The notes under the pieces were generated by a model. The model searched no databases. It saw nothing but the letters and a program-made list of their open reading frames with translations, and was not told the DNA's origin. From positions 960,001 through 1,024,000 of the forward strand of contig CAVPBK010000006.1 of assembly GCA_963701855.1 (NCBI GenBank): a stretch of DNA of 64,000 nucleotides. Direction: 5' to 3'. A program made the position numbers and the translations under genes. This document shows, piece after piece, positions 40,580 to 40,975 of this stretch (position 1 is its first letter; each line of letters opens with the position of its first letter). The stretch comes from Nitrospirota bacterium (GTDB lineage: Bacteria > Nitrospirota > Nitrospiria > Nitrospirales > Nitrospiraceae).

Positions 40580-40643
40580 CCATCAACGCGGCGACGGTGG
40601 CCTTCGGCTTAGAGTTGAAGACCAATTACCGAACGAAGCAACA

Positions 40644-40881
40644 ATGCCGCGTCTTTAATCGCTACGCCTTGAAATTGCTCGTTTAAGAATAGACAAAATA
40701 TTACCAAGGCCCTGAAGATGGCGGCGGCGGAATATGGCGCCCGGATGGGGCCGGTGGACGGCGCGACGAGGAACGCAGGACAACTGATCAAGAAAGTGAC
40801 CTGCTTTACAACAAGACCCGTCAGACCGCCATTACCAAAGAATTGATGGACATCGTCGGCGGTGCAGAGACGCTACGGTAG
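40644..40881 (+). pseudogene. atpG: F1 ATP synthase subunit gamma, remnant with large internal deletion and frameshifts
   Basis: SFKNRQNITKALKMAAA is fused directly to EYGARMGPVDGATRNAGQLIKKV, then frameshift to LLYNKTRQTAITKELMDIVGGAETLR*. Only 238 nt remain. Confidence 0.92.
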
Positions 40882-40975
40882 ATTGGAAGTTTTGAGCGCT
40901 GAGTAAAAACGCCACCAGGATCTAAAGCTCAGAACTCATGACTCAGATTTTAGAACTTGCGAGAGAAGGAGCGTT

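Follow-up and report, generated by a model that had tools for sequence, protein, structure and literature searches.

The window, the whole 64,000-nt stretch of DNA that was analyzed, belongs to a soil Nitrospira MAG of 15 contigs (G000). It carries, on the + strand and downstream of parA, parB, two bactofilin genes, and mnmA (ORF listing and Pfam), a run of F1 genes of an F-type ATP synthase in which a remnant of atpG lies between atpA and atpD. The features are as follows, where C9 atpG is a second atpG on another contig of the same genome.

38463..39059, + strand: atpH (F1 delta/OSCP), intact; PF00213, 130 bits, profile positions 1-171 of 172
39062..40579, + strand: atpA (F1 alpha), intact, 505 aa; full-length PF00006, PF00306, and PF02874; 95-99% identity to relatives
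40580..40643, + strand: original atpA-atpG intergenic spacer; aligns with the spacer 5' of intact atpG in G088 and G010
40644..40721, + strand: N-terminal part of the atpG remnant, codons 1-26; translations, alignment with intact orthologues, and blastn versus nt 41-88 of C9 atpG
40720..40730, + strand: deletion junction GGCGGCGGCGG; overlap of two blastn segments, same junction in relatives
40722..40881, + strand: C-terminal part of the atpG remnant, ~codons 240-292; PF00231 positions 259-285 (E 1e-7) and alignments
40882..40975, + strand: original atpG-atpD spacer; kept in intact-atpG genomes having the long spacer type
40976..42418, + strand: atpD (F1 beta), intact, 480 aa; Pfam, dN/dS of 0.024-0.043 versus relatives
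42527..42949, + strand: atpC (F1 epsilon), intact, 140 aa; PF02823 and PF00401

An earlier note on this DNA had claimed that only 238 nt of atpG are left between an intact atpA and an intact atpD, and the coordinates, translations, and alignment agree with this; its description of atpH, atpA, atpD, and atpC as intact is likewise borne out by full-length Pfam matches. Beta is 93-99% identical in amino acid sequence across the genus (full-length matches), and epsilon is 89-93% identical to the epsilon of genomes that use the operon gamma. Pfam searches of the genome found all F-type subunits other than gamma to be single copy, with the sole F-type alpha/beta pair lying in the window and the Fo genes for a and c at C1:30164-31072; the additional match in each subunit family falls in an N-type ATPase operon at C1:197-204 kb. 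The genome has a single F-type ATP synthase, whose F1 half (atpH-atpA-[atpG remnant]-atpD-atpC) lies in the window. A third strong PF00006 match (C9:153691-154323, 290.7 bits, in a 489-aa frame) lies remote from the atp genes and is presumably a flagellar or type III export ATPase.

Between the end of the atpA stop (40579) and the atpD ATG (40976) lies a gap of 396 nt, as against 936-1034 nt in six related genomes with a full-length atpG. Within it, the remnant occupies 238 nt (40644-40881). Comparison with the intact operon atpG of relatives, a gene of 292 codons, shows that codon 5 is now TAA (40656-40658), that one nucleotide is missing near 40679 in the N-terminal part, that ~640 nt (~codons 28-240, ~213 codons) have been lost internally at the GGCGGCGGCGG run at 40720-40730, and that a further nucleotide is missing after 40801 in the C-terminal part, where the T absent from G000 is present in related strains from metagenomes; alignment with intact orthologues also reveals many substitutions. 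Translated in three frames, the gap yields a reading 'MPRL*SLRLEI..' from the ATG at 40644, a second, shifted frame with 'ITKALKMAAAEYGARM..NAGQLIKKVT', and a third with 'LLYNKTRQTAITKELMDIVGGAETLR*' up to the stop TAG at 40879-40881. The only PF00231 match of the remnant covers HMM positions 259-285 (33.5 bits, under the 39.9-bit cut-off; E 1e-7), and it has neither a full-length PF00231 match nor an open reading frame of ~290 aa.

The junction fuses the alanine run of the N-terminal helix (VAAAK) to that of the C-terminal helix (SAAAE). In intact atpG the N-helix reads ..ATGGTGGCCGCGGCGAAG.. and the C-helix ..TCAGCCGCAGCGGAACAT.., which points to a ~640-nt deletion between two near-identical Ala-codon runs. 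At the DNA level these runs (N-helix, gccgcggcgaa; C-helix, gccgcagcggaa) stand one on each side of the deletion, as expected from the earlier proposal that the gene broke at an Ala-codon microhomology. The deletion in its original form, as found in G015 and G061, preserved the reading frame.

The remnant aligns with the intact atpG of its own genome by blastn (E 8e-18), which like the PF00231 match exceeds chance, with 72-75% nucleotide identity to this C9 gene versus 79-85% to the operon atpG of G010 and G088, and it has the operon-type residues NAGQLIKKVT..RQTAITKE. Its position, both native spacers, nucleotide identity, and these signature residues mark it as the evident descendant of the operon's own atpG. 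An AGGAG at 40967-40971 precedes the atpD ATG, and no terminator-like site was found on the + strand in 40580-40975. The stump is now probably no more than a long untranslated spacer of an atpHA-DC transcript. An 83-nt piece from metatranscriptome run X15 covers 40720-40802 with 7 mismatches and therefore stems from a relative and not from G000.

Logan short-read contigs match the locus with 0 differences and 0 gaps over 40348-41006 (X1), 40094-41081 (X2), and 40519-40799 (X3), of which those of X1 and X2 cover the atpA 3' end, the entire remnant, and the atpD start and that of X3 part of the remnant; X1-X3 are public soil metagenomes from three studies, one possibly being the source sample of the MAG. 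The earlier note had named a misassembly hiding a full-length atpG at this locus as the explanation that would overturn its reading, and one might suspect such an artefact of assembly or sequencing, given that G000 is a MAG of 15 contigs and that related long-read MAGs show frameshifts in atp genes. A full-length atpG is not supported by the short reads, and with the same junction present in six other species assemblies, we regard the chance of an artefact as vanishingly small.

The lesion also appears to be old. Among 20 atpD-upstream regions of relatives compared with the window, the identical junction was found in seven genomes, each of a different species, when G000 is counted (G000, G015, G061, G086, G018, G089, and G085). 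The remnants differ from each other by Jukes-Cantor (JC) distances of 0.12-0.21, with dS of the flanking atpD at 0.155-0.42, and each has its own stops and frameshifts in the alignment. In a DNA tree of atpD, the clade that contains G000 has seven members (SH-aLRT 99), and every one of them carries a remnant. The shared junction, a remnant divergence near the dS of atpD, and the private lesions together point to a pseudogene inherited from a common ancestor, in line with the earlier judgement that this is an old lesion and not a single error.

Pooled pN/pS of the seven remnants is 0.56 overall and 1.21 in the N-terminal part but drops to 0.39 in the C-terminal part and to 0.25 over the final 23 codons, so that the C-terminal part has fewer non-synonymous differences than expected under neutrality. 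A lingering function of the stump was considered and rejected, because the pairs are non-independent and the 3' end and the spacer alleles look recombined between lineages; we tentatively attribute the low C-terminal values to these two effects and not to function. Three dissimilar versions of the atpG-atpD spacer exist: one is long and GC-rich and paired with an ATG start, one has 37 nt and is paired with a GTG start, and one is AT-rich ('caatgttcaatg'). Their distribution departs from the atpD tree even within the seven-genome remnant clade, a mismatch that suggests recombination between species at this spot. In G085, G089, and G018 the atpA stop is replaced (GAG) and the frame continues for ~35-40 codons into the old spacer, giving an open atpA frame of 547 aa versus 508 aa.

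The dN/dS of atpD is 0.024-0.043 versus relatives, other remnant-bearing genomes included, a measure of the remaining atp genes that the earlier note had proposed and that shows strong constraint. With beta so constrained in species that carry the remnant, the F1 head is evidently in use and needs a shaft. The opposite reading is that the F-type enzyme is defunct, the remnant being its first casualty, with ATP coming from the N-type ATPase or from substrate-level routes. One essential gene of the cluster is indeed dead, and a larger deletion in G032 takes atpA as well, but atpH, atpA, atpD, and atpC of G000 are intact, the Fo genes are present, and the low atpD dN/dS holds across species whose remnants have diverged by 12-21%. 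A nitrite oxidizer, moreover, depends on chemiosmotic ATP synthesis. A defunct enzyme is accordingly highly improbable.

In G032 (94% complete, 20 contigs), the deletion has produced a single 194-aa ORF in which residues 1-86 of atpH are followed directly by residues 200-292 of atpG (L150, G032:C22:905000-910850, positions 4998-5850). An F-type atpA was not found in this assembly, in which the best match is 34% identical; F1 alpha has either truly been lost or dropped out through a collapse in the assembly.

A search of the whole genome with PF00231, another of the steps named in the earlier note, found three places: the remnant, the gamma gene of the N-type ATPase, and an intact second atpG on contig C9. 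This stand-alone atpG (G000:C9:299191-300093) encodes 300 aa without stops, matches PF00231 over its full length (about 324 bits, HMM positions 1-285), and is similar end to end to solved bacterial gamma chains (9itj_G, E 5.5e-61, residues 1-299). Its orthologues have a median dN/dS of 0.087 (range 0.033-0.241; 78 pairs among 13 intact genes), and its GC3 of 68.1% is close to the 66.8-67.8% of atpA and atpD. Identity between the C9 gamma and the genus's operon gammas, which are ~95% alike among themselves, is 62%. The difference is unevenly spread: identity falls to 49-51% in the globular middle but is 79% for the N-helix and 76-77% for the C-helix. The indels are small (2, 2, and 4 residues), and no redox-loop insertion is seen.

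The other intact gamma lies in an N-type operon at G000:C1 ~197276-204000 (locus L005, 9277-16242) with the Pfam order beta-AtpQ-AtpR-a-c-b-alpha-gamma and an epsilon-like match at C1:202432-202674. With AtpQ (PF09527) and AtpR (PF12966, 97.6 bits) both present, it qualifies as an N-ATPase operon of the kind described by Dibrova et al. 2010, as cited in PMC12342949. According to the available text of PMC12342949, almost all Nitrospirales have a canonical F1Fo enzyme, with N- and V/A-type enzymes as extras, and atpR is missing from most Nitrospiraceae N-type operons; against that report, the G000 operon with its AtpR appears to be an exception.

The earlier note had named a second ATPase operon as one possible source of gamma. 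Such an operon does exist, it is complete, and its gamma is intact (303 aa, PF00231 178.9 bits); in G018, moreover, the only intact gammas found are two N-type copies. If this gamma served both enzymes, the C9 gene would have some other role. However, overall identity between the N-type gamma and either F-type gamma, C9 or operon, is only 28% (29-41% in the axle helices), and purifying selection maintains the C9 gene as an F-type gamma of full length. In G084 and G045, furthermore, the atpA-atpD gap is shrunken and the stand-alone type is the only PF00231 match, without any N-type gamma. We consider supply by the N-type operon very improbable. The low identity of the N-type gamma and the two genomes with the stand-alone type only leave the stand-alone gene as the only credible supplier. 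The other half of the earlier suggestion, a gamma provided in trans by a relocated or xenologous atpG, therefore holds as far as can be judged from the sequences, given an intact C9 gene under selection and a constrained beta.

The stand-alone gamma type was found in 14 of the 85 genomes of the genus. It is intact in nine (G000, G045, G084, G011, G094, G095, G088, G083, and G060) and frameshifted in the assembly in four (G089, G090, G003, and G082). A 288-aa gamma in G012 (L142, G012:C54:24200-31200, 3070-3933), which is 62% identical to the G000 stand-alone protein and has an end branch of 0.45, adjoins the same downstream genes as the C9 copy (79.5% and 76% identical) and appears to be the positional counterpart of the C9 gene, diverged much further. 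The type also occurs on five further Nitrospira/Nitrospiraceae MAG contigs, and among the loci examined it was never found beside atpA or atpD. The single indels in the copies of G003, G082, G089, and G090 and of one further MAG contig each fall at a different site; those of G003 and G082 are +1 and -1 at the same spot, and the sites are mostly not homopolymers. They possibly represent real decay or a systematic long-read error, and the latter may apply since G087 has a broken atpA and G088 a broken atpD as well.

Several stages of the replacement coexist in the genus. Both gamma genes are intact, beside one atpD each, in G094, G095, G083, and G060, where the operon gamma has a dN/dS of 0.028-0.051 versus 0.043 in operon-only genomes. 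In G003 and G082 the operon gene is kept and the stand-alone copy is frameshifted, and in G088 the reverse is found. The atpA-atpD gap is shrunken to 156-504 nt in 13 genomes. In G090 the junction is a different one, with codon 5 joined in frame to ~codon 235 and a short GTG-type spacer; nearly all of the operon atpG is gone from G084 and G087, and G045 and G074 show second deletions. On the atpD tree, a single-gene tree with weak deep support, the remnant-bearing genomes outside the G000 clade are scattered. Since both the junction and the spacer type of G090 are unlike those of the G000 group, the operon copy was lost repeatedly in genomes holding a second gene: at least twice, probably more often, and always where the second type is known or possible.

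Two of the deleted genes retain open frames. In G090 a 68-aa frame (G090:C4 ~231220-231423, L041) fuses the native ATG and five codons in frame to the C-terminal helix, the reading from the ATG being ~60 aa and including the whole helix, and in G015 an 82-aa frame (G015:C19 ~74837-75076, L035) lacks an ATG.

Protein and DNA searches found no stand-alone gamma in 7 of the 13 shrunken-gap genomes (G015, G018, G061, G085, G086, G087, and G074). These are 79-99% complete, with G085, G086, and G087 at 79-85%. In G061 the contig with the downstream neighbor ends 207 nt before the expected gene; for G018 (99% complete, searched save for 947 bases) and G015 (93% complete) nothing of the kind accounts for the absence. 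Around the C9 atpG lie three dispersed intergenic repeat families (~120-190 nt), possibly MITE- or REP-like; the genome holds 15-59 copies of them, and short-read assemblies would be expected to break at this place. Copies are found at L004 9072-9236, 9821-10009, and 11101-11224 (G000:C9), another lies inside the window at 44209-44392 (81% over 192 nt), and relatives hold dozens at 75-94% identity. A mobile cassette bounded by these repeats was considered and rejected, as the families flank the stand-alone gene inconsistently in other species.

The C9 atpG is flanked by a BON-domain gene of divergent orientation and by ORFs lacking Pfam matches, and these neighbors recur in 2 of 16 loci, those of G089 and, on the downstream side, G012. 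The 100 nt directly 5' of the stand-alone gene are common to G000, G083, G089, and G045. A promoter scan upstream of the C9 gene found one sigma-70-like site, 70 nt upstream, versus 1.1 expected, which is chance level.

The origin of the stand-alone gene was addressed with a gamma tree of 89 rows, 13 of them stand-alone, compared with the atpD tree. The stand-alone rows form one clade (SH-aLRT 100, stem 0.34), which together with the G012 copy is sister to all operon gammas of the family and thus lies outside the genus. An AU test rejects a clade of the stand-alone and genus operon gammas (p 0.00025, lnL difference 59), a value to be read with the long branch in mind and with the tested group having been named after the tree was seen; on this test a recent duplication of the operon gamma within the genus appears rejected. 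No donor-like sequence was found among 584 relatives in species-representative genomes, the next best matches being operon gammas at ≤67% identity. The placement and the lack of a donor leave either an old, fast-evolving duplicate or a transfer from an unsampled Nitrospiraceae lineage. We give the second of these, a xenologue that spread among species and not a fast duplicate within the lineage, somewhat less than an even chance. The position of the stand-alone clade and the G012 copy outside all operon gammas of the family, the AU test, a gene neighborhood that varies between species (except G089 and G012), and the scatter of the holders over the atpD tree speak for it. On the other side, besides the missing donor, the GC3 of the gene is host-like, sister pairs agree between the gamma and atpD trees (G000 with G045, G095 with G088), and the dS among the copies (0.33-1.6) reaches the depth of the genus, as expected if the gene was passed down vertically from early on and lost in places; long-branch attraction is a risk with so long a stem, and the post hoc choice of the tested group weakens the test. 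The hybrid F1 of the earlier note would exist to this extent only: its gamma is a diverged paralogue or xenologue that originated in Nitrospiraceae.

Overall, we think it most likely that the operon gamma of G000 was lost by deletion, that the stump decayed, and that gamma now comes from the stand-alone C9 atpG. The in-frame deletion of ~640 nt between near-identical Ala-codon runs may have arisen by slippage or illegitimate recombination; it removed the operon gamma, and the stump then probably decayed neutrally. The sequences establish the lesion and its age, an intact second gene under selection, single copies of all other F-type subunits, and relatives both less and further advanced in the replacement. 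Gamma would be made from the separately transcribed C9 gene, a paralogue or xenologue of Nitrospiraceae origin, whose product seems to retain the two axle helices inside alpha3beta3 with a much changed globular foot. We infer that this protein assembles with the alpha, beta, and epsilon of the window and that its gene has its own promoter. Counterpoints are the seven shrunken-gap genomes in which no stand-alone gamma was found, the frameshifted stand-alone copies of G089 and G090, the chance-level promoter-like site, and a middle domain that contacts epsilon and the c-ring yet has only ~50% identity to that of the operon gamma, with epsilon itself hardly changed.

It has also been considered that the two gamma types are functional isoforms and not redundant copies, the stand-alone type, under its own promoter, lending the same alpha3beta3 a different coupling or regulation (for example, of ATP-hydrolysis latency). 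The axle helices of the stand-alone gamma would then be unchanged and its remodeled foot would face epsilon and the c-ring, the both-gene species, with both genes under purifying selection, would switch rotors, and in several soil lineages the new rotor would have won, the operon copy being repeatedly deleted between the same pair of Ala-codon repeats. We hold this to be a rather unlikely proposal, with perhaps one chance in a few. Much less likely, the open-frame deletions of G090 and G015 may yield axle-only peptides that bind F1.

Gamma is the sole subunit required to fit both the catalytic head and the membrane rotor, and it is normally locked in the atp operon. Within one genus, Nitrospira shows the stages of its replacement, from both genes kept through an operon copy freshly deleted to a stump nearly erased, with alpha and beta 95-99% identical throughout the swap to a 62%-identical gamma. 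This amounts to a natural experiment on interchangeable shaft parts, with the axle helices conserved and the foot free to change. There are practical consequences as well: completeness calls for Nitrospira MAGs that search only the operon for gamma, or that rely on assemblies in which small repeat-bounded contigs were lost, would report an incomplete ATP synthase in error. Should the two gammas be regulated differently, the swap would also bear on the control of ATP synthase in low-energy nitrite oxidizers.

A search of titles and abstract openings found no published description of a diverged, unlinked gamma displacing the operon atpG in a bacterial genus, and the available text of PMC12342949 (Fig. 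S9 and the supplements aside) makes no mention of a relocated gamma. The F1 genes, the N-ATPase, and gamma itself are known; what appears to be undescribed is an operon gamma displaced by a strongly diverged, unlinked one, with a dead stump and all intermediate stages in one genus.

Compared with the canonical F1Fo cluster atpH-atpA-atpG-atpD-atpC of most Nitrospira, G000 has the same subunits in the same order. A full-length, 867-nt atpG lies directly 5' of atpD on the same contig in 55 of the 85 genomes of the genus, and the order atpA-atpG-atpD was found in 35 of 35 non-stand-alone Nitrospirota loci; in contrast, the gamma slot of G000 holds a dead stump of 238 nt and its gamma gene stands alone on another contig. 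The N-ATPase operon gives this genome another rotary ATPase, likewise with a gamma, and differs from the present case in being a complete operon of its own and not a relocated gene.

Unlinked gamma genes and gamma isoforms are known from the cyanobacterial and plant lineage, with a nuclear atpC and two gamma isoforms in Arabidopsis. The likeness lies in a gamma gene apart from the alpha and beta genes and, in the four both-gene Nitrospira, in two diverged gammas for one alpha3beta3 core; unlike those systems, Nitrospira is a bacterial nitrite oxidizer, its gamma lacks a redox-loop insertion, and a pseudogene in situ records the hand-over. In paralogous or xenologous gene displacement, a diverged homologue elsewhere in the genome replaces an essential operon gene and the original decays. 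The displacement of the core rotor subunit gamma by a paralogue or xenologue is most likely what the Nitrospira genomes record. Set against the general case, the displaced gene here encodes the ATP synthase rotor shaft, a part that has to fit an alpha3beta3 conserved at 95-99%, and both-copy intermediates and several independent deletions are preserved within a single genus.
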